Below, in pieces: positions 15,924-53,987 of a stretch of 64,000 nucleotides of DNA; the first letter of the stretch is position 1; the number at the start of each line of letters is the position of its first letter. The translations under genes and the position numbers were made by a program. The notes below the pieces were generated by a model, which was given only the letters and a program-made list of their open reading frames with translations, had not been told where the DNA came from and made no database searches. This stretch comes from Tetramitus jugosus (taxonomy: Eukaryota > Protista > Heterolobosea). Location: NCBI GenBank assembly GCA_937625935.1, contig OW569346.1:434001-498000 (forward strand), read 5' to 3'.

Positions 15924-16790
15924 ATGTCCGCTTCTGCTGCCGCCAAAAAAGCAACCCGAACGTTTTACGATGTCTTGGGCGTCAAAACAACTGCCAGCGC
16001 CAAAGAAATCAAGATTGCCTACTTGAAGAAGGCAAAGCTTTTGCATCCCGATATACACTCAGCCAAGAAGGAAAAAAAATTACAACAACAACAACAAAAT
16101 GCCGGAACAACAACAACAACTGATGTTGATGATGCATCATCACCCACAATTGACTATGAATCAGAGTTTAAGAGCGTAACAGAAGCATACGAAGTGTTGG
16201 GAGATGTCAATGAACGTAAAAAGTATGACAGTAGAGTGTTGAATCTGTTTGATGAATCAGAGTACTATTTTGGTGGAAAGAAGAGGAGTCAGGATGCATC
16301 AGCAACAGATGGTCCTCGAAGAGAAAAGGACTTTTGGGATATGAGTCGCAGAGGAACCAGTGGAGCGAGTAGTGCTGCTTTTGTGCGGAATTTCAGTGCA
16401 GAGATGAACTATAGGAGAAAAGTGAGATATGTGTCTGATCCGGAAGAATTGGACAAGTTGAGTCGGATGTCGAGGCACTTTTTCGATCCGAGTGGTCTGG
16501 CGTATGATCAGTTCGATGCACCCAAAATTCCCAACTGGTCCGTCTTTTCGATACAAGAGTCGAGAGCTAGAGGCATCATCTTTAGGCAATTCCTGATGGT
16601 TGTCGCTGCATTCGTGTCAACTTGTTTCGGTATTCTTTTCATCCACAAAAAGGTGCTCAAGCACTACGAGATGCCAAACAAAAAGTACGAAGCATTGTTG
16701 GCAGAGTACTATGCACAGAAAGCAAAAGAAAAGGGTGAAATATTCCGTGCTTCCTTCCTAATGAATGGACTTCCAGGTGGAAAATTGTAG
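15924..16790 (+). CDS. J-domain (DnaJ type C) protein with one C-terminal TM helix
   Basis: FYDVLGV..IKIAY..HPD..EAYEVLGD, plus a hydrophobic helix near the C-terminus. Confidence 0.88.
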   Translation: MSASAAAKKATRTFYDVLGVKTTASAKEIKIAYLKKAKLLHPDIHSAKKEKKLQQQQQNAGTTTTTDVDDASSPTIDYESEFKSVTEAYEVLGDVNERKKYDSRVLNLFDESEYYFGGKKRSQDASATDGPRREKDFWDMSRRGTSGASSAAFVRNFSAEMNYRRKVRYVSDPEELDKLSRMSRHFFDPSGLAYDQFDAPKIPNWSVFSIQESRARGIIFRQFLMVVAAFVSTCFGILFIHKKVLKHYEMPNKKYEALLAEYYAQKAKEKGEIFRASFLMNGLPGGKL

Positions 16791-16875
16791 ATTGAACACA
16801 AGATAAACGAACACTTTATGAACCAAATCTTGGGAGAAAGTTATATCCCTCGAATTTAGTTTTCAATAGATGCGC

Positions 16876-18801
16876 TTAAGCAGTGAGCTCAGTGGCAAGA
16901 ACCAAAGGATTACTGTTTCTTCTTCTCAGAGTGACTGAGAATATGTTTGGATAATCGACTAGTTCACTGACTTGAATGTCTGCGTTGCCAGTTTGTGGGG
17001 TAATATCGAATGGAAGGTTGAAAATAGTAACCTTCTTGTTGTTTTCAATAAATTCCTTCAAACTCTTGTCTACAGTTAGAGTTACATATGGATCAACAAC
17101 CAAAGTGAGAGACTTCAAATATTGTTGCAATGAACCGCTCTTTCCAAAGAATTGAGAAGGGACATATCCATCCTTGAATGGTCCCATCTTATACTGGTTA
17201 ATCACTTGAGTAGAGAACCAGTCACTTCCAGGTCTAACAGTAACAACAGAGTGAGCCATTGCACCAAATTCAATTGCAAATGTAACATTTGCCTTTGGGA
17301 ATGCATAATAGCCTTGATTGTTGTTTGATAGGACAAGATCAGACTTTTGATAAAAGGTGGATTGATCAACAACTTGATATTCCTTCACCTTGATCTCAGT
17401 AATTGTTTCAGTGACACTAGTTCCATTGACAACCTTGGTCACATTTCTGGTCTCGGTCACATTCTCTCTCATGGTCAAATAATCAATGACAATAGATGAA
17501 TCCATGGCATTGTCCATGGCTTGAGATCTGGACAACTTGAGCACCAAGCTTGGCTCAACAGCCCTTCTAGCATTCTGTTCAAACACCTTGATGGATGGTG
17601 ATGTGGTCCACAATCCATCTTTTCCATTGCTTACTGAAGCTTCGTATCCATTGTCCAAGAAATTCAACAAAGTGGCCCAATGTCCCTGTAGTTCGTATCT
17701 CTTTGCATAGATTTGACCTTCCATTGCACTGACTGAACCAGCCAACGCATTCAAATAGCTGCAGAACAATTGCTTGTATTCGTCCTTTTCGTACCTAGCA
17801 GCCATCATTCCCTTGTAATTCGCCAAGCAATTCTCTTCTCTTGTAGCGTATTCTGCCTGCTTGTCTGCCAATGATTGTTTCAATGCAGTCATGTCAGCGT
17901 GTTGCTCCACAGTTTCGCGAATATCAGATGGCATATCCAAACTAGACAGGAACTCGCTGAAAGCTTCACGAATCGTCAACTCGTCTTGATTTCTGTTGAA
18001 TCCGTCCAAAAACTCTTCAGACAGCTTTCTCATATCATTGTACAGAGTGGAATCAATCTCCATGTCGACAAGCTTTTCGAGCTGTGCGTTTGATGCAGAA
18101 GGGAAGCCCAATGCAGCCAACACAACCAACTCTAATTGCTTAGAGATGATGGTGGCATTGAACTTGGTGAACAAGTTTGGGTTCACTGCAGGCTTTGATG
18201 GCTTTGCAGTCTCTTCTTCCTCATCACCAGTGTAACCACGTGGGACAATGCGTCCACTTTTACTGCACTCTTGAGAGAATGTGTTGTAACAAGCACCACC
18301 ACATGATTTTTCGCTGAAACCGCACAAAACACCCTTGCTGCAAGTCTTTCCCATGGATTCTCTGGAAGAGTAGCATTTGCCTCCACAACATGTGCTCATG
18401 AAGGAGCACCTGACAGTAAAGCACGCCTCGTCAAACTCTTCATTGTCCGACTTTGTTGAATATCTTCTGTAGTTCACTTTTTTTGGCGCCGACAAACGTT
18501 TCTTGTTTTTCTTGAGCGAGCGAGATTTCATGATGCGAGTGGAGGAGTCTGAATCGTCGAAAAAGAAGGAGCGCCCAGCAAATCCTTTCTTACTCTCACC
18601 GTAGCAATCACCGACACAACGAGTAAAATCGGGGGATGAGGTGGCAGGGTGCTGTTTGTAGCATCGATCAGTACAGACAATTTTGTTTGTAATCTTGCCA
18701 AAATTGAGGAAGGCATGACCCACATGGAAGTTGGATAAGAAAAGGGCAGTCAACAGCAGCAGAACGACTGACGATTTGATGACCATTGTTGTTCTAGACA
18801 T
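16876..18801 (-). CDS. Secreted protein A (signal peptide, Cys-rich module, core paralogous to 19252-20862); function unknown
   Basis: Long intronless ORF with a hydrophobic signal peptide and biased codon use. Shares collinear motifs with the neighbouring gene. Confidence 0.85.
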   Translation of the reverse strand: MSRTTMVIKSSVVLLLLTALFLSNFHVGHAFLNFGKITNKIVCTDRCYKQHPATSSPDFTRCVGDCYGESKKGFAGRSFFFDDSDSSTRIMKSRSLKKNKKRLSAPKKVNYRRYSTKSDNEEFDEACFTVRCSFMSTCCGGKCYSSRESMGKTCSKGVLCGFSEKSCGGACYNTFSQECSKSGRIVPRGYTGDEEEETAKPSKPAVNPNLFTKFNATIISKQLELVVLAALGFPSASNAQLEKLVDMEIDSTLYNDMRKLSEEFLDGFNRNQDELTIREAFSEFLSSLDMPSDIRETVEQHADMTALKQSLADKQAEYATREENCLANYKGMMAARYEKDEYKQLFCSYLNALAGSVSAMEGQIYAKRYELQGHWATLLNFLDNGYEASVSNGKDGLWTTSPSIKVFEQNARRAVEPSLVLKLSRSQAMDNAMDSSIVIDYLTMRENVTETRNVTKVVNGTSVTETITEIKVKEYQVVDQSTFYQKSDLVLSNNNQGYYAFPKANVTFAIEFGAMAHSVVTVRPGSDWFSTQVINQYKMGPFKDGYVPSQFFGKSGSLQQYLKSLTLVVDPYVTLTVDKSLKEFIENNKKVTIFNLPFDITPQTGNADIQVSELVDYPNIFSVTLRRRNSNPLVLATELTA

Positions 18802-19251
18802 TGCCAAGTATTATCGACCTGATGTTGTTGAGAAATTTTGTTGTTGGATGTTTCGATGAGAGGGGTTCGGAGTGTGACGGAGAGTTACACTGAACAACTT
18901 CTGGGCGGCACAGCAGCTGGCTTGATCATCCATTGACACTTCCTGGCTGAAAATAAAATTCATTCTGTGAAGTTTGCAGCACAAGGGGGCGGAAAAAATT
19001 TCAGAACTCTCCTTCTTGTCAATGTCGATTCAATCAACGTGGGAATTTTGCGAAGGGTGTCAGGGATACTATTGTCAACTGTAATCAAGGGAACCGCACA
19101 CAGGTTCTCTCTGAGGTGGGTCTCGGTGCAGACACAGCGTGCTCCTCGTGCCAACCTTTTTTTGTTTGAAAAAAACAAAGTAGGAGGATCCTTGTTTCTG
19201 GCATCATTCCCTCATCATCACCAACGATAATAACCAAACAAAAAACCAGTA
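18802..19251. promoter_or_regulatory. Putative bidirectional promoter of the paralogous pair
   Basis: About 450 bp between divergent ATGs; contains four TGACA/TGTCA pentamers within 18934-19077. Confidence 0.55.
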
Positions 19252-20862
19252 ATGGCCCGCTCCATCTCGCTATTAGTTGCTGTCTTGTTGTTCATGACAG
19301 TTGCCGTTATGGCTCTGAACACCAATGAATTGAAGCATCACATGCTCCTCAAGGAATCTGACTGCAACACAGCCTGTATCAAAAAATACAAGTCCATTAA
19401 CCGTTGTTTGAACGCTTGTTCCTCTCTCATTACTGACGCTTCCATCACAGATGCCATCGTTGAGCGCTTGACCACCTTCTCCGACGTTACTCCGCTCGAG
19501 AAGAAAACCGCTGTAAAGGGCAGAAAGAACAGAAAGTTCCGTGGGCGCGGAAGAAAATTCTCTACTGCTGCTCCATTGAGCGAAGACGGTGTCGCTGAGC
19601 AACAACAGCTCGAAGCTACAAAGCACCTCTATCAATTGTTCCACAACAATTTGAGATCAGTGTTGACCAATGGAGGATACAGTGCTGGTTTCCAATTGTT
19701 GGAAAATGCAATTGACTTGACTGATATTAGAGCGATGATCCCTGGATGGGAATCAATGCCCATCTCCATCATCAACCGTCAATCCGTTCAAGACTATGAC
19801 AACATGGCCATCCTGTCCGAAGAGTTGACTCAAGCTTCCAAGCCTGGTCCATTCCGTAGAACTGACGGCACAAAGTACAACCAAGAATATGAACAATTCT
19901 TGGCTGGTGTTCAAGGTGTGACTCAAGTAACCATTCCAAACCCTGACAATACATTGAGTGCCAAGAGAGCTCTTGAGTTTGAATATGCACTCAACAATTG
20001 TACCGTCAAGTACAGCAGTGCCAGTATGACCATTGTTGCTCGTTACACTGAAGAGCAATACTCGAACATTTTCTGTCCAGAGGTCAGACAGAGTGAACAA
20101 GCCATGTTTGCACAGATTGGTATCGAAGCAGGTGCCATTGCAAACAACAAGGCCTATGCTGCAGCTGTTGCATTGGGTATGGCCCGTGGATTGTTTACCA
20201 TGTCCTCCGCATTCAAGAAATTCCAGAGCTTCAGAGCCATGGAACACGAATGCCTCAAGGCATTGGAAGAAGAGAGACCACTCAATGGCAACGCAAAGTC
20301 CATTAGCTTTGCATACAATCATCACAACTGGAGAAACACTGCAGAGTCCTCCAGCTTTGATGTCTCTGTTGGCTATGGAGTGTTCAATGCCAAGGTTGGT
20401 CGCAGCAAGGAAACCATCACTGGTCTTGACTTGACTGCCATCGGTGGTGTTGAGATTGCTCTTGCTGACTTCAAGTATGTTCCATTGTATCCAGGTGAAT
20501 GGTACTCTTCCACTATCCTCAACTCTTTGAGATATGAGATGAGAGAAGCATCCTCCTCCCCAATTACTAGATTCTTTGGACAGAGCGGTACATTGACTTT
20601 GATCCCTAAGGCACTTTTTGTTGTCAACAACCCAACAATCAACTTCTTTGTCAAGTCTGACAAGAAGGAAGAGTTCAAGCAAAAGACCCAAACCACCATT
20701 GGTGGCGGATTGTCCGTCTTTGGTATTAACTTTGGTGGCAACTATGGTCGTGGAAAGCAAGTGGACGAAGGTACTGAGACTGGAGGAAACACCAAGATCT
20801 CTATCATCTCCAACAGTTGCAGACCACAATTGTTCGCTGTTGACAACCACTACATTTACTAA
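19252..20862 (+). CDS. Secreted protein B, with two Gly-rich amphipathic hairpins; candidate pore-forming subunit
   Basis: Signal peptide MARSISLLVAVLLFMTVAVMA, strongly C-ending codons, and paralogy to 16876-18801. The function is inferred. Confidence 0.85.
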   Translation: MARSISLLVAVLLFMTVAVMALNTNELKHHMLLKESDCNTACIKKYKSINRCLNACSSLITDASITDAIVERLTTFSDVTPLEKKTAVKGRKNRKFRGRGRKFSTAAPLSEDGVAEQQQLEATKHLYQLFHNNLRSVLTNGGYSAGFQLLENAIDLTDIRAMIPGWESMPISIINRQSVQDYDNMAILSEELTQASKPGPFRRTDGTKYNQEYEQFLAGVQGVTQVTIPNPDNTLSAKRALEFEYALNNCTVKYSSASMTIVARYTEEQYSNIFCPEVRQSEQAMFAQIGIEAGAIANNKAYAAAVALGMARGLFTMSSAFKKFQSFRAMEHECLKALEEERPLNGNAKSISFAYNHHNWRNTAESSSFDVSVGYGVFNAKVGRSKETITGLDLTAIGGVEIALADFKYVPLYPGEWYSSTILNSLRYEMREASSSPITRFFGQSGTLTLIPKALFVVNNPTINFFVKSDKKEEFKQKTQTTIGGGLSVFGINFGGNYGRGKQVDEGTETGGNTKISIISNSCRPQLFAVDNHYIY

Positions 20863-20962
20863 ATGAATTCTATGTCAAAGTAAATAGTCATGCTCCATGT
20901 GTACAATCTCTTCACTTGTTCTTTTCCTGTGCTTGTGTTGGTCCTACGATCTGGGATGTTTA

Positions 20963-22819
20963 TTATGAGGGTAGTAGAGAGTCCAGTTCAGGAATTGGCA
21001 TTTGAACAACGGCAGTGATCAGAGGAATTGAACTGGATTCACTGCACACGAATACCTTCACGATATCTGCCACTGGCTGCGGTGCCTCACCTGTTAGGGA
21101 GTCGCTCATATTTCCCAATAGAGACACCTCTCCTTGATATTCATACTGTATTCCAGGCAAGAGAGATGGAATATTGAGCTTGTTCGTCTTCATGTCGTAT
21201 ATCGCTTGATTGTACGAGAATAATAAGGCGATATTGCTCATGGGTTTGGCACCAGTGTTCTGTATGCTGAGTTTGATTTTAAAGTCCGGGCCTAAACCTT
21301 GAACATTTGCAGTCAGCCGAATACTTGCACCACTTGTGTATGACAATGGACCTTGCCCGTCAGTTAGAATCTTCACAAAAGCTCTAGCTGTTGTTAACCT
21401 CAGTTTACAAAGTTCTTTCTGGAATACTCGATGCATCTCAGTGCTGTACTTTTTCTCTCTCTCTGTTTGATCCATATAGAGCGCTGTCCTTACAGGTAGA
21501 TTGAGTGGAACTTCTTGTTCTACAGAAGGTCCCTTGTTAGATGGTTCAAGTTTTGCCATCCGAGATAAAATCTTAAACTCTGTTCCTCCATTTCGATAAG
21601 AGAGAGCTAAACAGTTCGCCTCACTGCCATATGTTCCAAAACACATTCCCGCCACAATGTCATTCGTTTCAATTACATTTACCAAGCTCTTACCGTTGTA
21701 GATTCGCAACTCTCGATTTTCGAGGGCAACCAAAAGACATTTCACACTTCGTGAAGATATCATGTCTATCACTCCCATGCTTTTAATCGCACAAGGAACA
21801 TAGATACTATATTGTTTTCTACCTCGGCTCGAAAAACAATTGATAACATTATTAATCAGTCCAATCACGATATTCTTATCCAAGCGTTGCAAGCCACAAG
21901 CATGTGTGTCGAGTTCAATTACTACTCCACTAACTTTCTTGTTCTTGATTGTATACACGTTATTGTCTCTGCATACAACAATTATCCGAGAGTCAATATC
22001 TAGGGATCCTCCAGATACAAGATACACCGGTACGGATGGCAGTGTGATTGTATCTGTTATTTTAACACCATTCTGATCGAGGATTAGGACCTTTCTTGAT
22101 TCCGTGCCTACAATCAAACATCCTATAGAATCTAATTCATCTTTATCCTTCGATATCACAGTCATACAGGTTATTACTGTCTGTTGAAATAGTGGAAAAG
22201 ACTTTCGAATCGATATGTACATCTGAATTTCATTTGGATCATTCATGCTTAGCACTTCATAGCTTCTATTGCTCAAAGGAACACCCATGTCTCTCAGTCG
22301 AAGCAATTCTTCAAATGTGGTTTTTGCATCATACTTGTCCATTTTCAAATTCTCCCAAATTGCTCTCTCACTGTCACCAATCTCAATGTTTGGAACCGTA
22401 AACTTGTGATGAGGTTGTAAGTTTCTGTACAGGAACACATGACATCCACTAGCTACTGCAATAATAGGCCTCCTAGGAGCTTTGTAGTCTGAGTAATAGG
22501 ACACCACAGCTACTGGTTCTTCCAACAAAATGTTCTCACTAATGATAGAAGTTCCTTTAAACACTTTCATTTTATGACTAGACACGGATGTTCGATTCCT
22601 GAGCAATGGGTTATTGCCAGAACTCAGCAACACTAACTTCGAGTCACCATCTCCATTGATATCAGAGAACGTCATACTTCCTGGGAGTGCACACACATTG
22701 GCCAAAGGATCATACCACGCATTTATCCACACCTTGTTCTTCTCTTCGTCTTGAGAAGCACTAGAATTACTGTGGGACAGTGTGGTGTTGTCTGACTTCT
22801 TTCTTATGAGTAAGCTCAT
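20963..22819 (-). CDS. BBS1: Bardet-Biedl syndrome 1 protein (BBSome subunit)
   Basis: WINAWYDPLA..SDINGDGDSKL, CLIVGTE, MHRVFQKELCKLRLTTARAFVK and VQGLGPDFKI. Confidence 0.95.
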   Translation of the reverse strand: MSLLIRKKSDNTTLSHSNSSASQDEEKNKVWINAWYDPLANVCALPGSMTFSDINGDGDSKLVLLSSGNNPLLRNRTSVSSHKMKVFKGTSIISENILLEEPVAVVSYYSDYKAPRRPIIAVASGCHVFLYRNLQPHHKFTVPNIEIGDSERAIWENLKMDKYDAKTTFEELLRLRDMGVPLSNRSYEVLSMNDPNEIQMYISIRKSFPLFQQTVITCMTVISKDKDELDSIGCLIVGTESRKVLILDQNGVKITDTITLPSVPVYLVSGGSLDIDSRIIVVCRDNNVYTIKNKKVSGVVIELDTHACGLQRLDKNIVIGLINNVINCFSSRGRKQYSIYVPCAIKSMGVIDMISSRSVKCLLVALENRELRIYNGKSLVNVIETNDIVAGMCFGTYGSEANCLALSYRNGGTEFKILSRMAKLEPSNKGPSVEQEVPLNLPVRTALYMDQTEREKKYSTEMHRVFQKELCKLRLTTARAFVKILTDGQGPLSYTSGASIRLTANVQGLGPDFKIKLSIQNTGAKPMSNIALLFSYNQAIYDMKTNKLNIPSLLPGIQYEYQGEVSLLGNMSDSLTGEAPQPVADIVKVFVCSESSSIPLITAVVQMPIPELDSLLPS

Positions 22820-33620: not shown

Positions 33621-34157
33621 ATGGTAGACATTACAACCCTCAAGAGAAACATTACCGATTTCAAGCCCGTGGAAACGATACAAAAGGGCTTCCAGGAGAC
33701 TGTGACAATCATCAGGGAGACGGTTCAGGTGATTGTCCCACAAGTGAAATCCTTCTTTGGTGTCACTACTTACCCCACATGGAAGATGGAAGTCATGCAT
33801 CCAATGAGTCCCAAGAAGAGAGAAGAGATTTGGGGAGTTGCAAACTATGATCTTGACTTCTTCACCAGTTGTCTGTTCTTCAAGATGTTCGACAAGGATG
33901 AAGAGTTCTATGGTTTCGGATTCCCAACTCTTGACTTGAAGAAGGACTTGTTCACAAAGTTAAAGACCACCACACCAACTGAAACAAGAGAGTTTCCATC
34001 CTGGAAGATGAAGTTCATGCACCCAATGAGCGACAAGCACAGACTCGAACTGTATGGAAGAGCAAATTACGATCTCGACAAGTTGACTAGCTTCTTTTTC
34101 CAGAAGACATTTGGCTTGATCAAGTCTGATCTTCCATTCTCCTCCTTCACTCTCTGA
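33621..34157 (+). CDS. Small protein with a duplicated 40-aa motif; unknown function
   Basis: Two copies of PxWKMxxMHPMSxKxRxExxGxANYDLD, with biased codons. Confidence 0.8.
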   Translation: MVDITTLKRNITDFKPVETIQKGFQETVTIIRETVQVIVPQVKSFFGVTTYPTWKMEVMHPMSPKKREEIWGVANYDLDFFTSCLFFKMFDKDEEFYGFGFPTLDLKKDLFTKLKTTTPTETREFPSWKMKFMHPMSDKHRLELYGRANYDLDKLTSFFFQKTFGLIKSDLPFSSFTL

Positions 34158-36227: not shown

Positions 36228-38897
36228 TCATGTATTCTTTGTTGGGTTGTTCTGAAGACCAGCAGAGGGAGCAAATGAGCCATAGTAGGGTCCGATCTGT
36301 GGCGTGATCACCATTTGTTGCAAGTGCCGCACAAGGTTTTTCAATTGTTTCACTTCTTCTGCCTGTCGTGCATATTCCATCATGAGCACCTTGACCAGTT
36401 CGTCATTGTTGTTCTTTCCCATGGCTTCCACAATGTTGAACGGAAGTGGATGATTGGCAGTGGTACCACCACTCGAAGAAGGCAACAGTTGTTTCAATTG
36501 TTGCTCCACTAATGGTGCCAAGGTCTTTGATCCATCGACACTCTCACTTGTTTCACTCTCACTCTTGCTATTGTTGTTGCTGTCCAGTAAAAGAATGCCA
36601 TCGTCATTGTCATCGTTGACCATTGTAGACGAACCAATCACACTATCACTCAATACGGGTGTATCTCGACTTGGACCGTCGTTCGTCGGTTGTTGTTGCA
36701 CCACAGGTGATGAATCATGCATGGGAGAGGGTGACGATGGCTGAAGGAGACTGTAACTCGGTAGAGATGTAGTTTCCGAGGAATGATTGTGACGCTGATG
36801 GTGATCAATCGACAGACTGGAGAATGGATGTTGTTGCTGCTGCTGAGGCATTGGAGATATCATGGCAGATGCACTCAGTGGTGACAGAGGCAGAACCAAG
36901 AGCGAAGTAGGAGATATGGCATCAATATCAATATCATCGAGATCATTGTTATTGGATGATAAATGATTCGAATGATCGAGATTGTTGTTGCTATTCGTAG
37001 GATTGTCATGCATGCTTGATGCAGAGTGGTGATGATGATTGCTTGGTGTGTGCGGTGTATGCAGCAGTCCTTCATCATTGAAATCCAGTAGCATCTCTGT
37101 ATCAATCTTGAGCTTTTGCTGTTGTTGATTGGCTCTCTTTTTGCTTGCCTTTCTCTTGTGCAGTGTATTCTTTGCACCACCGTCACTGCCCTTGTCACTC
37201 TTCTTTTCATGATTATTATTCTTATCATCGACTTCTTCATCATCATCATCAATGACAATGACTGCTGAAGAGGAAGAGGCTCCTTCAGTCGCCTTGTTGT
37301 TCATGGATGTTGTTGTTGTTGTTGTTGTTGTTGTTGCCGACATCATATCACCACTGTTCATCAATGATCCCAACAGTGGAATGTACTCTGCCATGGACGG
37401 ATAAAACTTGTCTTGTTGTTCCATATCAGTCTCCTCCATTCCTCTCTTTCTTGTTCTCTTTCTCTCTGCATCGATGCACGTACTTGTCTTGCCTAATTGA
37501 ACACAACGCTTACAAGGTCTGCCAGAGTCACATGCCGCATGAGCAATTCTACAATTGATGCATGCACGTTTGGTGTATTGACCTCTCTTGCTCATTCTTC
37601 TTCTGCGTCGTCTTCTTCTTCGTCTAATGAGAGCTACTTGAGGATGCTGTTGTTGCTGTTGTTGTGATGATGGTGATGGTTGTGGTTGTCCATTCGCATC
37701 CACATAGTAGTAATAGTAGTCTTCATCATTTTCATCACCGTCTGCTGCCTCTTCATCCTCATATTCATCTTCATACTCTTCTTCACCGTCATCATCTATA
37801 TCACCGTCATCTCTATCATCTATATCATCATCGTCATCGTCATCATCATAGTAGTAGTAGTATTCACCATTGTCATAATGTTCTCTACCTTCATGCTTGA
37901 CTGTACTTTCACTCTTGATTCGATTCTTCATCTTGATTGATTTATGATTCATCGTTGATGTTGATATTGATGGTGGTGGAAGTGAAGTTGTTGTTGTTGT
38001 TGTATGATGATGCATAGGATTGTTATTGTTCATCCATGATTGATGATTCATTGCATGAGGATGATGAAATAGCATGGTGCCACTTGTTGGTGTTGTTGTT
38101 GTTGTTAGTGGTGCACCAGTTGTTGTTGTTGTTGTTGTTGACAGTGATGGTAGTGGTGGTGGTGCGAAAAAGAGTGATGTGTGGTTTGGTGATGCATGAG
38201 GTGGAGGTGGGTGCATGGGTATCATTGGTTGTTGTTGTTGTTGTTGTTTTGTGGAAAGTAGTGAATTTCTTGATCGATTAATCTTCTTTTTTTGATTCAT
38301 AGTATTCACATTGGTAGTAGCAGCAGTAGTATTGCTATTCGTGATCGTTGGGTGATTACTACCCGCAGCAACACCAATCGTAGTATTAGTATTATTATTA
38401 TTATTACTATTATTATTACTACTTGTTGTTGTTGCTGTTGTTGAATGATTCTTTTGTGAGTTCAAATTGGTTGAATTTGATTGAGGCAATTTCTTATTAT
38501 TGCTTACTGATTTTTGCGATGCTAGAGATGATGACGATGATGAAGAAGAAGAGGAAGATGATGACAATGGAGGAGGAGGTGGTATAGGAGTGCTCGTACT
38601 GAGCATTCTCATTAATTGTTCATGTTGTTTGTTTTGTTGTGCCAATATACTCTTGAGTGCTGTGACTGATGATGACGATGATGGTGTATTGCTGCTACTG
38701 CTACTGCTACTGCTCATGTTATTGCTATTGTTATTACTAATATTACTGCTACCATTGCTGGTCATATGACTGTTATTTGGCGACTTGTTTGTCTTCGGTT
38801 GTTGTTCCTTTTCTGATTTAATCGTTGATGTTGTATTCATATTGCTGGGTATTGAAGTTGAATTGCCCTTTTGTTGTTGTTCTTTTGTATCATCCAT
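36228..38897 (-). CDS. Zn(II)2Cys6 binuclear-cluster transcription factor
   Basis: CINCRIAHAACDSGRPCKRCVQLGKTSTC, preceded by a poly-Arg NLS; short C-terminal coiled coil. Confidence 0.92.
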   Translation of the reverse strand: MDDTKEQQQKGNSTSIPSNMNTTSTIKSEKEQQPKTNKSPNNSHMTSNGSSNISNNNSNNMSSSSSSSSNTPSSSSSVTALKSILAQQNKQHEQLMRMLSTSTPIPPPPPLSSSSSSSSSSSSSLASQKSVSNNKKLPQSNSTNLNSQKNHSTTATTTSSNNNSNNNNNTNTTIGVAAGSNHPTITNSNTTAATTNVNTMNQKKKINRSRNSLLSTKQQQQQQPMIPMHPPPPHASPNHTSLFFAPPPLPSLSTTTTTTTGAPLTTTTTPTSGTMLFHHPHAMNHQSWMNNNNPMHHHTTTTTTSLPPPSISTSTMNHKSIKMKNRIKSESTVKHEGREHYDNGEYYYYYDDDDDDDDIDDRDDGDIDDDGEEEYEDEYEDEEAADGDENDEDYYYYYVDANGQPQPSPSSQQQQQQHPQVALIRRRRRRRRRRMSKRGQYTKRACINCRIAHAACDSGRPCKRCVQLGKTSTCIDAERKRTRKRGMEETDMEQQDKFYPSMAEYIPLLGSLMNSGDMMSATTTTTTTTTSMNNKATEGASSSSAVIVIDDDDEEVDDKNNNHEKKSDKGSDGGAKNTLHKRKASKKRANQQQQKLKIDTEMLLDFNDEGLLHTPHTPSNHHHHSASSMHDNPTNSNNNLDHSNHLSSNNNDLDDIDIDAISPTSLLVLPLSPLSASAMISPMPQQQQQHPFSSLSIDHHQRHNHSSETTSLPSYSLLQPSSPSPMHDSSPVVQQQPTNDGPSRDTPVLSDSVIGSSTMVNDDNDDGILLLDSNNNSKSESETSESVDGSKTLAPLVEQQLKQLLPSSSGGTTANHPLPFNIVEAMGKNNNDELVKVLMMEYARQAEEVKQLKNLVRHLQQMVITPQIGPYYGSFAPSAGLQNNPTKNT

Positions 38898-44576: not shown

Positions 44577-46973
44577 TTATATCATTTGATGATCCATTGG
44601 ATCCATCTCCACATGACCCATCTCTTCTATCTCCTCTTCTGGATCCTTTGGGAATCCAAGACGCTTTGTGGTAGGCAGCAAAACTACGAACCATGTCAGT
44701 AGAAGAACGGAGATAATCCAGCAGGAGAGCGTAATCACACCACTAAATGGTCCTAGCTGTTCGCACACATTGCTCCTGGATGATTTGTAGTAGTTTCCAA
44801 TATAGTTGCAATGTGCAATTCCCGTTACGTTATCAATCAAATCGTTCACCTTATCAATTGCATAATCCACGACAGACATTGCCGATTGAGCTACGTCATT
44901 AATGTTGCTTGGAACAGAATCGATTGCGCTCTGAATTGCCTTGATATGTTGATCATTGACTATGAGCGACTTGAGTTGATTCAATTCTGCCAAACAATGA
45001 TTAAGAGTGCTATTGAGCTCGAGAGTATCTTGTTTCAATGAATTTGTTTTGTTGATGACCTCATCTCTCGCGTCCTTGTAATCGAGGAGCAGTGCTCTTC
45101 GATCGTGGAAGAATGTTTGATTCGCAACGTAAGGTGAGGAAGCTGGATCCAAAGCAGTCACATTGTCGAGTGTCCAATACTCTCCTCCAAGTTTGGCTGA
45201 CTCTTGATTCAACTCATCCAGCTTTGGTTCCACAATTGATTCATCATAACCAAATCGAGTATAATTATCATACTGTGGATAAATTTCGTTCACATGCAAT
45301 TGAATGATCAGGAGATAATCTGTTGCATTCTGGAATGAAACTGTCACCAAATCATTCGTCTTATTATAAAAATCTGTAATGAAGGACGAAGCTTCTGATG
45401 TGAGAGAGCTAGCATTGAACGATTGAATCGTATTATTGATTTCTTTTCTTACTGGATCAATCAATCCAGTCACATTGAGGAAATCGGTTTCGAGGCCCGG
45501 TATCATATCCAAGATACTATCATTGCCGGAGCAGTACAGAATATCAAGGGCAATATCTGAAATGTTGCCCATGATAGCATCAGTGTTGAATTCACTAATT
45601 TGGAACATGTTGTTGGTGTCGAGAGTGGACATGAGCCTCCTAGCACTTGCAGTGTTGGTGCTGCTCGACTTACCCAGAATATACTTGTCGACCAGTGACT
45701 GACTTCGCTTCACAGCAGGTTCCACCTCTCTGCAAACATCAGTAAGAGCGATGAATAGGATCAAATGGAGCAAACCAATCACAATAAACAAAAATGGAAT
45801 GAAGAATGAGCAGCATGCCGTTAATCTTGGTGACCATCTCCACTGGCAACAAACACCAACGAGTCCAAATGCAAAAATGACAAAGATGACTGCAAGGAAT
45901 GTGATAAACACGGAAATACGCACGTTATCCACCACGTTGACATAGTAGAACACTTGGCCCATGATGTCTCTTCCCTTGTCAGTGTACTTTGTTACTTGGT
46001 TCAATGGCTCATTCACTGCACTCTTCACATCTGAGAATGATGATTGAATAGTGGATCTTGAGCCATTGACTTGTGTTTTCACTTGATCAATCAAGTCGTT
46101 CAAGGTTGTATAGGCACTGTTGATATTGGATTGTGCACTGTCCAAAGAGGTCAAAACATTGTTCAATTCTGTCGTGTACTCACCCAAATCTGGTACATCT
46201 TGTGACTGAGGAGACTCTTCCAGTCCACTGCCATTTTCAATTCGATGAATCAAAACGGTCATGTTCGAAAAATCACCTTGCAAGTGATTGAGCAAAGAAT
46301 TGGCATCTGTCACGTCTTGTTTCGCACCACCCAAAGAAGTGTCAATCGTTCGGATTGTTGAATTGAGACCGGCGAAGGAATCGACGACAGTGTCCAACTT
46401 TCCAAACACGTCATCGACAATGTGATCCGTGTTGTTGATGGATTGGATTCCATTGTCGATTCTGTCGAGGAAGGTGTTTGCTAGGCCGTTGGTGTCCTTC
46501 TCGACCTTTCTCAGCGTAGTCGTGAACAAGATGCAGAACAACATGACCAGTATCATCATTGCACTGAACACGACAAAAATACCGGCATTGGAAAGAATAG
46601 AGAGTCGAATCTGATTGGAAGAATATCCACCTAGTTTGGGCTTTGATCCACCACATACTTGACATGAGCATCGGCAACACCATATATAGAATGCTACATT
46701 GTAAATGACAAAGAAGAAGATTGCAAAAATGATGAGAACAATTGCAATGTAGATTCCATAGCCAGCCCATCCTAAACCATCATCCAACATTTGTGGATAG
46801 TGTCTTGTTGGTGTGGCACCTTGAGAGCATTGGACCATGGATGATGATGATGTTGATGCTGTTGGTCCAAAGTTACTTGTACTCATCATGATCATCACAA
46901 GGGCAATAATGCAGGTGAAGAGTAGGGACAGAGAGGTTGTCCATCGTTTTGTTGCTGTTATAGTCCTACTCAT
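44577..46973 (-). CDS. Prominin-like five-TM glycoprotein
   Basis: Signal region, TM1 followed by a CCRCSC cluster, two large helical extracellular loops, DVC, ILYC and a late CxxIxxxY...VC before the last TM. Confidence 0.7.
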   Translation of the reverse strand: MSRTITATKRWTTSLSLLFTCIIALVMIMMSTSNFGPTASTSSSSMVQCSQGATPTRHYPQMLDDGLGWAGYGIYIAIVLIIFAIFFFVIYNVAFYIWCCRCSCQVCGGSKPKLGGYSSNQIRLSILSNAGIFVVFSAMMILVMLFCILFTTTLRKVEKDTNGLANTFLDRIDNGIQSINNTDHIVDDVFGKLDTVVDSFAGLNSTIRTIDTSLGGAKQDVTDANSLLNHLQGDFSNMTVLIHRIENGSGLEESPQSQDVPDLGEYTTELNNVLTSLDSAQSNINSAYTTLNDLIDQVKTQVNGSRSTIQSSFSDVKSAVNEPLNQVTKYTDKGRDIMGQVFYYVNVVDNVRISVFITFLAVIFVIFAFGLVGVCCQWRWSPRLTACCSFFIPFLFIVIGLLHLILFIALTDVCREVEPAVKRSQSLVDKYILGKSSSTNTASARRLMSTLDTNNMFQISEFNTDAIMGNISDIALDILYCSGNDSILDMIPGLETDFLNVTGLIDPVRKEINNTIQSFNASSLTSEASSFITDFYNKTNDLVTVSFQNATDYLLIIQLHVNEIYPQYDNYTRFGYDESIVEPKLDELNQESAKLGGEYWTLDNVTALDPASSPYVANQTFFHDRRALLLDYKDARDEVINKTNSLKQDTLELNSTLNHCLAELNQLKSLIVNDQHIKAIQSAIDSVPSNINDVAQSAMSVVDYAIDKVNDLIDNVTGIAHCNYIGNYYKSSRSNVCEQLGPFSGVITLSCWIISVLLLTWFVVLLPTTKRLGFPKDPEEEIEEMGHVEMDPMDHQMI

Positions 46974-47460
46974 GTTGTTGTCAATCTTTTATACGGTTGT
47001 AGTGGTAGGCGGACTGTGATGTTCAGTGTGTCTCTCTTGTAACTTTGTGATGATGGGTGTTTTGTTTTTCAAAAAACCCAAAGAGAAATGGAAGAGAGGA
47101 CAGCGAAAGGAGGGTTGGGATGTATTTACTTGTTTTGTGTTTTGTGAGAGCATCCCTTGCAGAAGAAGAATGTGCAAGGAAGATGTGACGAAATGTCGGG
47201 TTGGAACTTGGACATTTGACGTCGGAGTCCTCAACGATTACGGTCGGTCCATTTTTAGTTAGTAGATCGGTTGATTTGATGACTCTTGGAGGACAACGGA
47301 CAACAAGATTCGAAGACAAGATGCCTGAGGAGTTCTCTCGCAGTGAGCGAGTGTTCATTTGATTCGGTTTTGTGGATAGAGAGCTTTCCAGCATATGTCC
47401 AATGGACAAATGCAGTTTGTTATTTGCTGATGGATGCATCACCATTCATTTGTTTCCAAG

Positions 47461-48693
47461 CTAATTGCGGTTCAACGGGTTTGGTGCCTCTTCTTCGTTG
47501 ACAAGCACTGTTGGCATGGCAGCAAAACGATGCGTTAGCGCAGGTATCACATACTTGTGCAACAACACGGAGATGAACAAAAGCGAGCTCACAGCGAATC
47601 CAATCGCTAAAATAGCAATGGCAACCTGCAGCTTGTATATCTGACTCCATGTCACAGTAATCGTCTCAGTTCCAGGTGGAACATACTGTCTCACAACTCT
47701 CTGGTTAATATCTTGGATGGGTCTGTTGTTTGCAATGTGGTGCGGCAAAATGGACATAAATCTTCTGAGTTGAGATCTGGAGACACTGAACACGCTGTTG
47801 ATTAGGATCCATGTGACAGATTCAGAACAAGGTGGAGTCGTCAATGATCCATCGTATGTGATATAGGGCAGAGAAGTACTATCACGCACCAATGACTCAA
47901 AGCTCAGATAATCATTGGTCGATGTATTCGAATAACAAAAGTCAATAAACTCGTTCAAGAAGGCTGAATCCTCATCTGTGGTCACCTTGAAGAAGAATCC
48001 AACGACTGCCAACGCACCTGTCGCAGTATTCTTGTGCACAAAGTGAATCTCCAGTGGATATGCAACACCATCAATGTGATGCTCCGATACTTCATGCGTA
48101 TGGAATTGAGTCATATAATATCGATTTGCTTCATCATTGGCGTCACTCGAAGAAGAGAGCTTTGGCAGAGGTCCTCCCGTCATGTACATTGTGTTTGGCT
48201 CCAGACTCGTCTGGCATGTTTCTCCGTTGAAGAACACTCGACCAAAACCTGATTTCCAGTGCAGCTTCAATGGCAAAAGCGTATCGTCTCTAACAGTGCC
48301 ATTCACCATTGTGTTGATATCGATTGGTGATTGATGAACTCCGTTGCCACACAATGGATATTGGATGGACCAATGTTGTGGGCCATTGGTGCACGGATCA
48401 TAGTTCCACTCTTGTGCACTCACAAGTGCAAGTTGTTGTTGCGCGTCAATGATCAAAAGCATGGCAATCATAACAACAATCAACCAAACAGTCAAACACT
48501 TGAGAGAGTGAAGACCATTGTGTGGTGTTGAGGATGATGATGATGTCAATCGAACACGTTGTTGAAGAAGATTTGGCATTGTTGAGTTGTCTGTGGAAGT
48601 ATATTGATCGTTGGGTGAAGCATGCGATGGCCCTGCAACAGTATTCTTCTTCTGTATTGTGTTTTGTTGGTGGTGTGGAGAAAAGCGCGACAT
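47461..48693 (-). CDS. Alpha-class carbonic anhydrase, type I membrane-anchored (start uncertain)
   Basis: QSPIDI, QFHTH, SEH, EIHFVH, YDGSLTTPPCSESVTW, NNRPIQ and a C-terminal TM. Confidence 0.95.
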   Translation of the reverse strand: MSRFSPHHQQNTIQKKNTVAGPSHASPNDQYTSTDNSTMPNLLQQRVRLTSSSSSTPHNGLHSLKCLTVWLIVVMIAMLLIIDAQQQLALVSAQEWNYDPCTNGPQHWSIQYPLCGNGVHQSPIDINTMVNGTVRDDTLLPLKLHWKSGFGRVFFNGETCQTSLEPNTMYMTGGPLPKLSSSSDANDEANRYYMTQFHTHEVSEHHIDGVAYPLEIHFVHKNTATGALAVVGFFFKVTTDEDSAFLNEFIDFCYSNTSTNDYLSFESLVRDSTSLPYITYDGSLTTPPCSESVTWILINSVFSVSRSQLRRFMSILPHHIANNRPIQDINQRVVRQYVPPGTETITVTWSQIYKLQVAIAILAIGFAVSSLLFISVLLHKYVIPALTHRFAAMPTVLVNEEEAPNPLNRN

Positions 48694-49135
48694 CTCCTGA
48701 AAGCTTTTTATTCTCCTCGTGAATCTTTTGAAGAGTTGGATATTTGTCCGCTCACAACCTGGTGGTGGAAGAACAAACACAGCATTTAGATCTCAATCAA
48801 TGGATATTCTAACGAACGTATGTACGTAGGTCAGAATCAATCAACGACCCAGCAATCAATGGGTCAAGAACTTTACGATCACCGGAATAAGATTGAAGGA
48901 TACAATTATCAATTGGATTTCGAGGATGTTCTTGTACTTCGATCCATTGTTTTGACCTAAGCAAGCCCTGAATCGAGTCAGTGGTTGTCCACCATATGTA
49001 TGTGAATTGATACAATTCTGAAACACCGAAGTGTCCACCTCTGAATCAGAATGTTCGGCTCAAGAATCGGGAAATCTCCACCCTTTGATTCTGCGCAACA
49101 AAACATCAAAAAAACAACAAAAAGCTCAGGTCCAC

Positions 49136-50368
49136 ATGGCATCACCGCACAAGGAGGAGGACGACAATGGTATCGCACCATTGTCCACACCACATCATCA
49201 TCATCATCATCACTCCATGCCAAATCAAGAACAACGACACCGAAACATGACAACATCATCTTCACCCATTACCTCTGCACACCACAATCATCATCAAAAA
49301 AGAAAAAATAATCATCATCATCATCACCACAATCACAATCACTCACCACTGTTCACCACGAGCAACAAGTTTGTCCAATGCGCCAAAAACTACATTTTAC
49401 CCATTATTGTCTGTTTGATTGGAGGTGTTGCATGGACAGTGGCCACATGTATTTTAATACCCGGTGCATTCCTACACTATAGTACGATCATGTTTGTTTT
49501 GAATCAAGTGATTGGCAGTACCGAAGTCTTTCTCATGTTTTGGAGTTATTTCAAGTGTGTGAAGACGAGTCCAGGTTACGCATCAAGCGACTGGGAAGTG
49601 AATCAAGTAAGAGATGATCAAGATCGTGTTCAATTGTTGAGATTGGAGCCTGCAAAGAACGGAGAAGCAAGATACTGTGCCAAATGTGGCATTTATCAGC
49701 CACCGAGAGCCCATCACTCGCGCGCACACAACAAGTGCGTTCTCAGAATGGATCACTATTGTGTCTGGGTGAACAATGTGGTCGGTGCATTCAATCACAA
49801 GTTTTTCTACTTGTTTCTGCTATATCTGTGCCTCGGTATAGCTCATTACTTCTTGTTGGTGATGGTGTACGGGTATCGACTGGTGAACGATTTGACAGCT
49901 GTGAATCCTATCCCATTTGTCGTTCTCATCATTTTCACAGTCTTCTTGTTACCGATTACACTCATGGTGTACATGTTCTTTGGATGGAACACGTATCTCC
50001 TGTTGACCAATCAGACATCTATTGAGAATCACATCAATAGTGAGATCAACATTCGACTAAAGTACAGAAAAAAGAAGAAGAATAGCGAAAATGGGGACAA
50101 GGTCCAATTCAGACACATTTACAATGTAAACATGGTGGACAATGTGAAGAATGTGTTGGGTGATCGAGTGCTACTGTGGTTCTTGCCCACGGATCCAACT
50201 GGTTCCGATGGTTATCACTTCAAGACAATTGGTGTCGAAGAGGTGGAACGAGTCAATGCCTACATCCAAGATGCTAGACCAGATGAGAGTGCCTATGTCA
50301 GTGAGAGCAGCGATGATGAGGGCAGTGAGGAGGATGAAGAAGATTTGGATAGAAACTCTATTGTCTAG
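49136..50368 (+). CDS. DHHC-family palmitoyltransferase, DHYC variant
   Basis: Four TM helices, CAKC..PPRAHH..CVLRMDHYCVWVNN and NQTSIE. Confidence 0.92.
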   Translation: MASPHKEEDDNGIAPLSTPHHHHHHHSMPNQEQRHRNMTTSSSPITSAHHNHHQKRKNNHHHHHHNHNHSPLFTTSNKFVQCAKNYILPIIVCLIGGVAWTVATCILIPGAFLHYSTIMFVLNQVIGSTEVFLMFWSYFKCVKTSPGYASSDWEVNQVRDDQDRVQLLRLEPAKNGEARYCAKCGIYQPPRAHHSRAHNKCVLRMDHYCVWVNNVVGAFNHKFFYLFLLYLCLGIAHYFLLVMVYGYRLVNDLTAVNPIPFVVLIIFTVFLLPITLMVYMFFGWNTYLLLTNQTSIENHINSEINIRLKYRKKKKNSENGDKVQFRHIYNVNMVDNVKNVLGDRVLLWFLPTDPTGSDGYHFKTIGVEEVERVNAYIQDARPDESAYVSESSDDEGSEEDEEDLDRNSIV

Positions 50369-50597
50369 AGATTGGAACATCATATCCTTGAAAGCCATAC
50401 ACTGTTGTTTGCTACTTCATTTTTCATAAGGACACAACAATACAATGCGCTCAATTTCAAGTGTATCAAGCGGGGAAATAATCCATCAGCTGTCCAACTA
50501 TTTTTGACGTGCAGCGATCCATCAGCAGTGGGAAAGCGCGTTTTGGATCTGCTTTTTTGCATCATCAACACGAAAATCAGTTTGATCATCATACACA

Positions 50598-51476
50598 ATG
50601 GGCAATCATCAAAATAAAGACTTGCGATTCAAATCCTCAAAATTCCGTATGTTAACACTACTCCTCTGACCTCTCTCTCTGTTTTCATGTCATGTTATTT
50701 CTTCATTTCAGATCGTCCATTTTGCAAAGCTCTCCCAAGAACTGTGCTGACACTGACTGCTGCAATAACGTATCAGTATCGGAAGATGAAATCAGAGAAA
50801 AGAGACGCTTTTGGAACCAAATGTTCCCCACTGGTGTCGCAACCAGATCAAACTTTCATAAATTTGCAGAAAAAGTGGCAATCGAGTACGACAATATGAG
50901 CAGTGTTGATTTCATGTTTCGAGCAATGGATGCAGATAAGAATGGAGAGATTACATTCGAGTATGTGTTAGTTTGATGATCGCTTGATGATTGAGACTGT
51001 TTGCTATATTGTTATATTTGTAGTGTTGGTTACTAAATACAACGCATCTTTCATGAATATGTAGTGAATTTCTATGGTACATGGCAATTACTTCACCAAC
51101 GAATCATAATGCAATGGTTCAGGTCGATGATCTGGTTGACATGTGCTTTTTGATGTATGATGAAGATGGGTATGTTTTTTTCACAGCTTGATGATTGTAC
51201 GATTGTCTGATTGTATTCGCTGACCATTATGGCGTGCTTTTTTTTTGGCGACAAAACAGCGACGGTTATGTGACAAAGGAAGAGCTGCGACGAACAATGA
51301 ACAATGTGTTCAGCACACAGGGTCACGATATTACAGAGTCTGAAGTCAAGGAGAACATTGAGAAGAGAATTAGAAGACTGCTCGAGGCATGCGACAAGGA
51401 TCACGATGGTCGATTGACCAAGCAAGAAGTCAAGGTAGCTTGTCGCAACAATCCATCCCTCGTTGATTTTCTTTAG
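50598..51476 (+). CDS. Neuronal calcium sensor / recoverin-like EF-hand protein; introns 50647-50776, 50961-51064, 51170-51259
   Basis: Three GTATGT introns give MGNHQNK..FLSEDEI..FPTG..DADKNGEITFDEF..YDEDGDGYVTKEEL..DKDHDGRLTKQE. Confidence 0.85.
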
Positions 51477-51564
51477 AGCGAAACTGTAAATACAATATGA
51501 TTTTTCACGCCATTTGTTTGCCGCTAATTTCACTGATTTTTACAAAACAACTTTTCGAGCTTAG

Positions 51565-52395
51565 ATGGATCAGGCGATACACCAGCAATTGGAAGAGCTT
51601 AGAGCTCTTGAAGAAACAGAAGCAAAGAAGCTAGCACTTTTGCAGAGTGAAATCGAACAAATTTCACAAGCTCTATCGAGAGATGAGAATGCTCTGATAC
51701 AACTGAACAGACAAAAGAGGAAAGTCATGGCTCAGAATTTTAATATGCAAGTACAGATTGACGAGTTGGATACTGAGTATGAAAGCTTGGTACAAAAGTT
51801 TGATGACTTGAAGAACCAACTCAGTGAAATACAGATTGTCAAGAAGAAGGCCGTTCAAGAAGCAGTGTCCAACTTGAGAAAAGAACTTCAAAAGCAGAGA
51901 GAAGAGCACCACATCTACACACAGAGAATCAAGGACTACTTTGACAATCAGAGTGAACTTGGAAAGAAACAGAAACAATTGAGTCAATTGTTGCAAGAGA
52001 AACAAGCCACGACACAGAGTCTTTGTTGTCAACTGGAACAGCAGACCCAATTAAACCTGAAGATGAACAAGACAATTCAAGAGCTGCAACGGGACAAGCA
52101 CTCTATCATTCAGCTGAAAAGAAAACTGGAGCAAAACACCTCAAAGACAATCTCTGATACAGAGGACTTGAGAGAGCAGATTAAACAAATGAAGGAAACA
52201 ATAGGACACAAGACACGAGAGACCACTCTGTTGCATTCAGAGCTCAATCAGCAAAAGGATCTCTTAAAAACAATAGAAGAACAAATTGCAGAACAGGAGA
52301 ACAAGAAATCCATGGTGAATCAACTCAAAAATCGTGTATTCCTAGAACATCAGCAAAAGCAGAATCAATTGAAATCAATTCGACAACAGCAATAA
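51565..52395 (+). CDS. Coiled-coil protein of unknown function
   Basis: 276 aa of continuous Q/E/K/L heptad pattern. Confidence 0.75.
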   Translation: MDQAIHQQLEELRALEETEAKKLALLQSEIEQISQALSRDENALIQLNRQKRKVMAQNFNMQVQIDELDTEYESLVQKFDDLKNQLSEIQIVKKKAVQEAVSNLRKELQKQREEHHIYTQRIKDYFDNQSELGKKQKQLSQLLQEKQATTQSLCCQLEQQTQLNLKMNKTIQELQRDKHSIIQLKRKLEQNTSKTISDTEDLREQIKQMKETIGHKTRETTLLHSELNQQKDLLKTIEEQIAEQENKKSMVNQLKNRVFLEHQQKQNQLKSIRQQQ

Positions 52396-52481
52396 ATCAA
52401 TATAGTGTAGGTGCATTTGCGTGCATGAGTACATGTGTGCGTGTGTCTGTGTGCTTGGTGCACACGTCATGTGTGAATATA

Positions 52482-53987
52482 TCACACCATTGATCCAAAT
52501 GAAGAATTCATCTGTGCAGAGTACAGCGAAGAATTCATCACTGCTACGTGCTGTCTGTACTCGGACAATGGTTTCCTGAATGGAATTCTACTTGGTTCAC
52601 AAGGTGCGAGCAAGAAATCGTTGAAAAAGTTGCGCAAAGGTCCCCTATTGAACTTGTTCTGATCCCGTCCTCTACGTTTCTTAATTGCTTCATACGTCGT
52701 TTGATTGGTACAGATCAAATAACCATGGTAACCGAATAGACTGCCCACAAATCCCAGTGCTCCCAGGCAGAACAATATAATGGGCACGGATCCTGCTGTA
52801 CAAATAATTTTCCACACGGTTGGTGCATCACCGCGAAACGGATACGTCTTGGCCAACGTGACACACGAATAAACAATTTGAAACACACACAGTGCAATCA
52901 TTGTCAATAGTGCAATCGTTGTCGATGTCACAAAGTGACTAAATGCCCTATAGTTTCTCTTTCCTATACAAGTGCCCGTCCACGGACAATGATGATCAAA
53001 CTTTTCCACACAATTGTCACAACGAGGACAGTGTGACGTTCTCGGAGGCCTATAAATCTCACACGTATAACAAAATTTCAACACGAGTTCCTCTCCGTTG
53101 ACATACACGGTTTGAAACAGTGGTGGATACTGCTTTGTGACTTCCTCGACATCCGGATTCTCATTCTGCATATTGTTCGTAATGACGCACCGCCTGGGCA
53201 ATATCCCTGGATCGGTCACTGCTGTCATGAACAGTGCAAACATGATGTAGACAAGTGCCAGTAAGGGAACAACCAACACAATGTACCCCACTGGATGAAG
53301 CAATATAAAGTAAGATGCCTCAAATGCCTCAAACAACAGAAAAGGGATCAAAATCAGAGTAATGGTCACTCCGATTTGTTTCGTGTCTGGTCCAATGATC
53401 CACCGACCACCACATGGAGTATAATTGTTGCCGGGCCATAATTTTGCCAATTTTTCACTATCACTCAACGTGACTTGTTGTTTTTTTCGCTTTGTCAAAT
53501 CGGCAGTGGAACACGATGTTGAAGTCAGGTCACTATTATTATTGTTATTGTTATTATAGTTATTGTTGTTATTGTTGTCTACTAATTGAGTTGATTGAGT
53601 TGGTAGAGTTAATTTTTTGATTGGCGAGAGTTGATCATCCTCATCATCATCATCATTCTCTTCATCATCACACTTGTGTTTTGCATTGTTTTTATTATTA
53701 TGCTTATTATTGTTATTGTTGTTATTGTTATTGGATGTGATGAATGATTGATTGAGTGAGGTGACTTGAGGTGAAGATGCAGTTGTCACTGGAGAGACAT
53801 AGTGATTAAACACGCGATGATGAGTATTGTGATTGTTTTGTTGTTGTTGAGTCAAAGATTCTCTTTGCTTATTGCGCATTAATTGTTCAATGGCACTCAA
53901 TGGACTACCACCATCACTACCACTCTCTCGTTCCTTTTCAGGTGATTTATTCCCAATGCTATAGTAGTTGTTGTTGTCCGTCATCAT
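52482..53987 (-). CDS. DHHC palmitoyltransferase, Erf2/ZDHHC9-like
   Basis: GRWIIGPD, TDPGILPR, KFCYTCEIYRPPRTSHC..DHHCPWTGTCIGKRNYR and NQTTYE. Confidence 0.95.
   Translation of the reverse strand: MMTDNNNYYSIGNKSPEKERESGSDGGSPLSAIEQLMRNKQRESLTQQQQNNHNTHHRVFNHYVSPVTTASSPQVTSLNQSFITSNNNNNNNNNKHNNKNNAKHKCDDEENDDDDEDDQLSPIKKLTLPTQSTQLVDNNNNNNYNNNNNNNSDLTSTSCSTADLTKRKKQQVTLSDSEKLAKLWPGNNYTPCGGRWIIGPDTKQIGVTITLILIPFLLFEAFEASYFILLHPVGYIVLVVPLLALVYIMFALFMTAVTDPGILPRRCVITNNMQNENPDVEEVTKQYPPLFQTVYVNGEELVLKFCYTCEIYRPPRTSHCPRCDNCVEKFDHHCPWTGTCIGKRNYRAFSHFVTSTTIALLTMIALCVFQIVYSCVTLAKTYPFRGDAPTVWKIICTAGSVPIILFCLGALGFVGSLFGYHGYLICTNQTTYEAIKKRRGRDQNKFNRGPLRNFFNDFLLAPCEPSRIPFRKPLSEYRQHVAVMNSSLYSAQMNSSFGSMV

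Follow-up and report, generated by a model that had tools for sequence, protein, structure and literature searches.

The window analysed here is a 64,000-nucleotide stretch of contig OW569346.1 of the heterolobosean Tetramitus jugosus, a gene-dense eukaryotic sequence with a GC content of about 41% and long uninterrupted open reading frames (ORFs). Between a DnaJ gene and BBS1 (Pfam scan) lie two neighbouring genes, here called A and B, which a first-pass annotation made from the letters alone had described as a head-to-head pair of diverged paralogues and a candidate secreted pore-forming system. Two ORFs are present in that arrangement, with their starts 450 bp apart, and the N-terminal hydrophobic peak of each protein (hydropathy heuristic) is compatible with the signal peptide that had been proposed. 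The pair has the following features.

16876..18801, minus strand: gene A, 641 amino acids, a secreted-type family member with reshaped hairpins and a candidate non-inserting partner (basis: orthologues P0041, 39%, and P0044, 35%, among the family matches listed; covered by RNA-type contigs).
18712..18801, minus strand: likely signal peptide of A, residues ~1-30 (hydropathy peak from residue 7; putative cleavage site).
18604..18675, minus strand: twin CX3C of A (C43/C47, C62/C66), a motif common to B and many protist-type members.
18265..18423, minus strand: Cys-rich segment of A, residues 127-179, with two CGGxCY repeats; reduced in P0041.
17311..17469, minus strand: hairpin-1 equivalent of A, residues 445-497, long and Thr/Val-rich with three N-glycosylation sequons; shortened in P0044.
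16939..17052, minus strand: hairpin-2 equivalent of A, residues 584-621, shortened and glycine-poor with three prolines.
18802..19251, no strand: divergent A-B spacer, 450 bp, a candidate bidirectional promoter.
19252..20862, plus strand: gene B, 536 amino acids, a secreted-type family member with two intact amphipathic hairpins and the candidate pore-forming subunit (basis: transcript-like contig L001).
19252..19314, plus strand: likely signal peptide of B, residues ~1-21 (hydropathy peak from residue 5; putative cleavage site).
19363..19557, plus strand: twin CX3C helical segment of B (38-56) and basic linker (91-102), a candidate removable pro-region with putative processing.
19600..20859, plus strand: core of B, residues 117-536, a predicted gasdermin-like domain with an inserted helical hairpin.
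19915..20163, plus strand: inserted coiled-coil hairpin of B, residues ~222-304, with conserved C250 and C275 (predicted model and family alignment).
20332..20430, plus strand: hairpin 1 of B, residues 361-393, alternating hydrophobic/polar and proline-free; a low-confidence loop in the monomer model.
20674..20787, plus strand: hairpin 2 of B, residues 475-512, glycine-rich, alternating and proline-free.

A and B are paralogues. BLASTP aligned them with 80 identities in 351 positions (23%, E 4e-9), and their Smith-Waterman score of 136 compares with 41 ± 6 (maximum 68) over 300 shuffles. A profile of the B family scored A at 37 bits, where 1000 shuffles gave at most 4.2, and a profile from which both the A clade and the B clade had been left out scored B at 148 bits and A at 102 bits. 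All 16 of the literal strings tested from the collinear motifs reported earlier were recovered, in the same order. Two other claims of the first-pass annotation held in part. Codon bias, described as strong in both genes, is strong in B (effective number of codons 42.1, lowest of 32 ORFs) and moderate in A (46.5, ninth); homopolymers are short, as reported (longest run 4 in A and 3 in B), although this does not set the pair apart from its neighbour BBS1, where the longest run is also 3. Eight of the 30 junctions between window ORFs of at least 170 amino acids (antisense ORF excluded) are head-to-head, and divergent orientation by itself is ordinary in this window. Notable repeats were looked for in the A-B spacer and none was seen. 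Antisense ORFs of 189 and 108 amino acids within B were taken as shadows.

Word searches recovered 13 B-like proteins and, for A, nothing among 7991 candidates. The latter result was a false negative, because scanning in full by HMMER with a profile of A+B, which yielded 216 clusters at E<=0.001, gave two A-type orthologues among the 150 clusters listed. Word searches and scan together gave about 16 B/C-type homologues. Named members come from Percolomonas cosmopolitus, Ancoracysta twista, Paraphysoderma sedebokerense and a Paracaedibacteraceae bacterium. Pfam gave no gasdermin row for A, B, 12 B-clade rows and 77 of 148 further matches, and none of those 77 reached the Pfam cut-off; neither A, B nor five homologues reached an NCBIfam cut-off; and PDB sequences gave no match at E<=0.001 and no gasdermin, family profiles included. 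None of the proteins scanned matched a MACPF or cholesterol-dependent cytolysin (CDC) profile in these three kinds of scan. There was no family match in the plasmid collection and no match in genome contigs scanned with B-clade patterns, and the titles and abstract beginnings covered, mostly outside subscription journals and supplements, held no description of the family. This family of 216 clusters, of predicted giant-pore kind, is unannotated and unnamed. The Cys-rich segment of A matched Pfam Carb_bind (PF10645) below threshold (E 0.012, 16.2 bits, cut-off 25), and its internal CGGxCY repeat was reached by none of 2000 shuffles.

A FastTree phylogeny was built from 136 of 147 rows, those less than 60% filled being excluded, and was midpoint rooted; no order of events is therefore claimed. 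All proteins with the twin-CX3C N-terminus, A and B included, form one group of 50 (support 0.88), within which the A clade (1.0) does not group as sister to the B/C clade (1.0). The old duplication proposed earlier thus stands as paralogy, but a simple local duplication does not. MACPF/CDC proteins have a conserved diglycine where the core sheet bends. In B, Gly398-Gly399 is invariant in 12 B-clade rows, but of 147 family rows just 15 and 17 have glycine at these positions, and A lacks it (compared by sequence position only). Elsewhere in the family, P0075 (1198 amino acids, four cluster members) carries the domain at its C-terminus, after some 780 residues that match nothing in Pfam, and L022:4920-6320 encodes a lone, distant member whose motif set differs, closely followed by three same-strand ORFs of 306-363 amino acids, possibly another operon type of the family.

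The structural model of the B core had a mean predicted local distance difference test score (pLDDT) of 89.7 and a predicted template modelling score of 0.83. It aligned to the bacterial gasdermins 7n52, 7n51 and 7n50 with modest Z and E values, and these alignments run in order through target residue 2 to about 220-228, beyond the hairpins alone. The last residue of the model falls on gasdermin residues 219-228 with nothing beyond it, so B is predicted to lack a C-terminal inhibitor domain; its hairpin segments are modelled as loops, short strands and one helix. The predicted structure of B points to a giant-pore fold of beta-pore-forming protein type, closest to gasdermins, which A is predicted to share. 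A pore-former fold had been anticipated, and in this comparison the gasdermin likeness emerged, while no CDC-like row was found among the 50 shown. Nor were MACPF, CDC or aerolysin rows among those shown, a scope that does not exclude such folds; the listing of the wide VIA search with this model was dominated by coiled-coil matches. A first model from 12 sequences (pLDDT 48) gives a weak hint only: it matched pore-state structures including the EaCDCL pore (top VIA row), RCD-1 and MACPF, and its hairpins also resemble viral coats and capping protein. Prediction of an A+B core complex, run without alignments, scored 0.00 and is no evidence either way.

The two proteins differ in the hairpins. 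Throughout the B clade, hydrophobic residues alternate with small polar ones in segments 361-393 and 475-512, which are glycine-rich and proline-free, and both could form amphipathic transmembrane beta-hairpins; in A-type proteins these segments are degenerate. In A, P0041 and P0044 the second is shorter and glycine-poor with two or three prolines, and the first takes one of two forms, long and prone to glycosylation or short with three prolines. P0041 retains little of the CGGxCY/Cys-rich segment of A. Of the division of labour suggested in the first-pass annotation, between a binding A and a membrane-inserting B, the comparison is consistent with B as the likely inserter and with an A that lacks intact hairpins; besides a binding role, one as an inhibitor or a cap is possible for A.

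Pairing of this kind recurs in other genomes. P0044 (A-type) and P0008 each lie on a JGI contig of 69,831 bp, likely the same one. The Paracaedibacteraceae genome encodes P0099 and P0144 in tandem, 68 bp apart (L005:6001-9130). Two surveys around this bacterial seed genome, counting weak rows as well, found matches in 7 of 401 and 6 of 401 genomes, with two genomes in common. After exclusion of six weak genomes (G152, G203, G362, G550, G558 and G748; E 6e-5 to 1e-3, coiled-coil part only), five bacterial loci were left, comprising same-strand pairs in G001 (the seed), G060 and G728 and single genes in G037 and G185. In all three pairs the hairpins of the first gene are intact. Those of the second gene carry 9/4 and 4/4 prolines in G060 and G728, and in G001 the second gene has a hairpin that is polar and shortened. 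As P0099 and P0144 are sisters in the tree, degenerate partners likely arose more than once. Paracaedibacteraceae are endosymbionts of protists, and such bacteria are a possible route of gene transfer.

Both A and B are live, transcribed genes. The contig L001, from a metagenome collection, matches B plus short flanks (19191-20903) at 99.4%, and 20 of 24 listed runs contain part of the stretch, eight of them soil metatranscriptomes. We examined eight runs (four recorded as RNA, three guessed RNA, one unstated), leaving out X15-X18, the four runs of unstated kind whose word share was highest. In all eight, A and B are each covered by separate assembled contigs, which report presence rather than level or strand. 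None spans the A-B spacer, one A contig extending to 18844 and the B contig L001 beginning at 19191, and the A-B junction is given by the window sequence alone. Contig depths of A, B and C (a third paralogue, described below) are of the same order and above those of the neighbours; they were not used as evidence because these same genes had served to find the runs and depth gives no ranking of expression. The single promoter and stoichiometric co-expression proposed in the first-pass annotation are putative. The listed ORF variants are synonymous in 17 of 22 cases for B and in 13 of 23 for A, with no stops, and the length of every listed indel in A is divisible by three. In X3 and X4, contigs extend beyond B into the 3' end of BBS1, which is convergent with it (19353-21586), with a 17-base deletion at 20925, and an X2 contig connects A with the 3' end of the DnaJ gene (16735-18447); these may reflect overlapping 3' ends or read-through.

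A further diverged contig, present in seven of the eight runs, has loose ends matching the third paralogue, C (P0011, L003:142-1770), which lies outside the window and probably belongs to the same organism. C is 53% identical to the B core, and its first hairpin is basic (Lys-rich) rather than hydrophobic; its existence suggests a system with more than two parts. Basic or polar first hairpins also occur in a separate clade of eight, among them P0060 from Percolomonas, P0066 and P0064, and the basic-hairpin subtype may have arisen twice. Loose ends in X12 and X13 near 20428-20514 mark more diverged family contigs, P0005/P0010-like by eye; their source may be other organisms represented in the two runs.

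Other parts of the window hold a 178-amino-acid ORF with the strongest C-ending codon preference in the window and no Pfam match (33621-34157), a weak Zn2Cys6 match (36228-38897) and, at 44577-53987, a Prominin-like ORF with a signal-like N-terminus, an alpha carbonic anhydrase and two DHHC palmitoyltransferases.

We tentatively prefer, at somewhat less than an even chance, the explanation that B is a secreted pore-former and A a co-assembling, non-inserting starter or targeting subunit. The pairing of intact with damaged hairpins in three bacteria argues for such a secreted pore-plus-helper system as the likely arrangement. Both proteins would be secreted, and removal of the twin-CX3C pro-region of B may be the activating step, there being no C-terminal inhibitor. 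B would then oligomerise outside the cell or in the food vacuole, two segments per subunit refolding into four transmembrane strands to yield a beta-barrel. A would co-assemble with B without crossing the membrane and start or aim the pore, C with its basic hairpin would probably join them as a third subunit, and the complex could be used against prey or competitors. The modest score of the predicted fold is the main uncertainty. We consider it probable that one of the three readings that keep B as the pore-former holds. A wider picture is possible, although we doubt it more than we believe it: the family may be an unnamed branch of the giant-pore superfamily, with a gasdermin fold and an inserted coiled coil, found in bacteria and in more than one lineage of protists. 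One soil protist would have made of it a classically secreted multi-subunit weapon, with B as pore-builder, a basic-hairpin C and a non-inserting A, a gasdermin-based analogue of complement in which intact plus degenerate pairing arose more than once.

It seems unlikely that B, with or without C, forms pores while A is a brake that binds or caps B oligomers, shielding the producer's secretory membranes or limiting pore size. A-type proteins and the bacterial second genes do retain core motifs while their hairpins are lost, the bacterial order of intact then degenerate gene resembles that of toxin-immunity pairs, and B, having no C-terminal autoinhibitory domain, would need another restraint. 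However, two of the five bacterial loci show no partner in the stretch read, and the extra N-terminal Cys-rich repeats and glycosylation sequons of A would be unnecessary for a pure brake. In the CDC-like (CDCL) toxins, moreover, the second subunit promotes the pore (PMC11952106).

Equally improbable in our judgement is that A and B are pore-fold paralogues acting separately, brought together by an old local rearrangement in a compact genome. The frequency of head-to-head junctions in the window, the different clades of A and B, the position of C outside the window and the scarcity of A-type relative to B/C-type homologues among the matches listed all fit this, yet two members of a rare family are adjacent here and likely again on the 69,831-bp contig of another organism, intact plus degenerate pairs recur in three bacteria, and a hairpin-defective protein is hard to account for as a stand-alone pore. 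Least probable of all is that the family makes a secreted polymer or scaffold without lytic action, as part of a cyst wall, an extrusome or a surface coat, and that its gasdermin likeness reflects no more than a common sheet-and-hairpin arrangement: the modest Z and E values, the viral-coat and capping-protein resemblance of the weak-model hairpins, a long coiled coil with several diverged subtypes suited to a structural heteropolymer and the strong codon bias of B would agree with it, but the gasdermin alignments cover the target in order rather than the hairpins alone, glycine-rich alternating hairpins are retained from protists to bacteria, and the patchy bacterial distribution would better suit a conflict system than housekeeping structure.

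The value of the observation lies in an unnamed family and a recurring intact-plus-degenerate pair, a real feature and a probable variant of the giant-pore kind. If the interpretation is true, it offers a candidate means by which soil protists kill prey or rivals, and a signal-peptide-bearing eukaryotic gasdermin-like system would bear on the relationship of gasdermins to MACPF/CDC proteins (PMC10153256, PMC11952106). The small bacterial two-gene versions make the division of labour easy to test.

Among known systems, bacterial gasdermins (PDB 7N52, 7N51, 7N50; pore 8SL0/9A84) are the best whole-domain structural match of the B model and likewise have two loop segments positioned to become transmembrane hairpins. 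They differ in that neither A nor B matches them in sequence or in Pfam; B carries an inserted coiled coil of about 80 residues and an N-terminal twin-CX3C region, ends with the pore domain, lacking the C-terminal inhibitor that is typical, though not universal, in gasdermins, and is paired with a degenerate paralogue. Gasdermins are also described as proteins that "invariably act from within cells" (bioRxiv 10.64898/2026.10.05.756811), whereas A and B start with hydrophobic signal-like segments by our heuristic. Pyroptolysins, the recent prokaryotic exception in the same source, turn a gasdermin fold against non-self membranes from outside, but they are single-chain fusions with a CDC-like C-terminal beta-sandwich, whereas A and B are eukaryotic and have no residues after the core. 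Neurospora RCD-1-1/RCD-1-2 are a gasdermin-fold pair that forms heteromeric pores, and RCD-1 pore rows appeared in our structure searches; that pair is heteroallelic and serves allorecognition (PMC11760362), whereas A and B are neighbouring genes of one genome, 23% identical, with signal peptides and degenerate hairpins in one member.

The CDCL toxins EaCDCL-L/S likewise consist of two paralogues (PMC11952106), and a similar split, one starting and one building a giant beta-barrel, is proposed for A and B; our two-paralogue set is adjacent here and in three of five bacterial loci, its joint action being putative. Proteolytic activation is plausible here too, and the EaCDCL pore led the VIA rows for the low-confidence model; for the confident one, the 50 rows shown included none from CDCL. 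A lacks the fourth, C-terminal beta-sandwich domain of the long CDCL component, A and B ending at the same alignment column, and the A/B genes are eukaryotic and head-to-head, with hairpin segments that are not helical bundles in the model. In the MACPF/CDC fold, two such bundles beside a twisted core sheet turn into the hairpins. The hetero-oligomers of the complement membrane attack complex and MACPF proteins, and pleurotolysin B, share the logic of secreted, disulphide-bearing, multi-paralogue giant pores, and their pore-state rows matched the low-confidence model; the pair differs from them in having no Pfam or PDB sequence match and no MACPF row shown for the confident model. Because A and B fail a defining feature of each known system, we file them under none of these.
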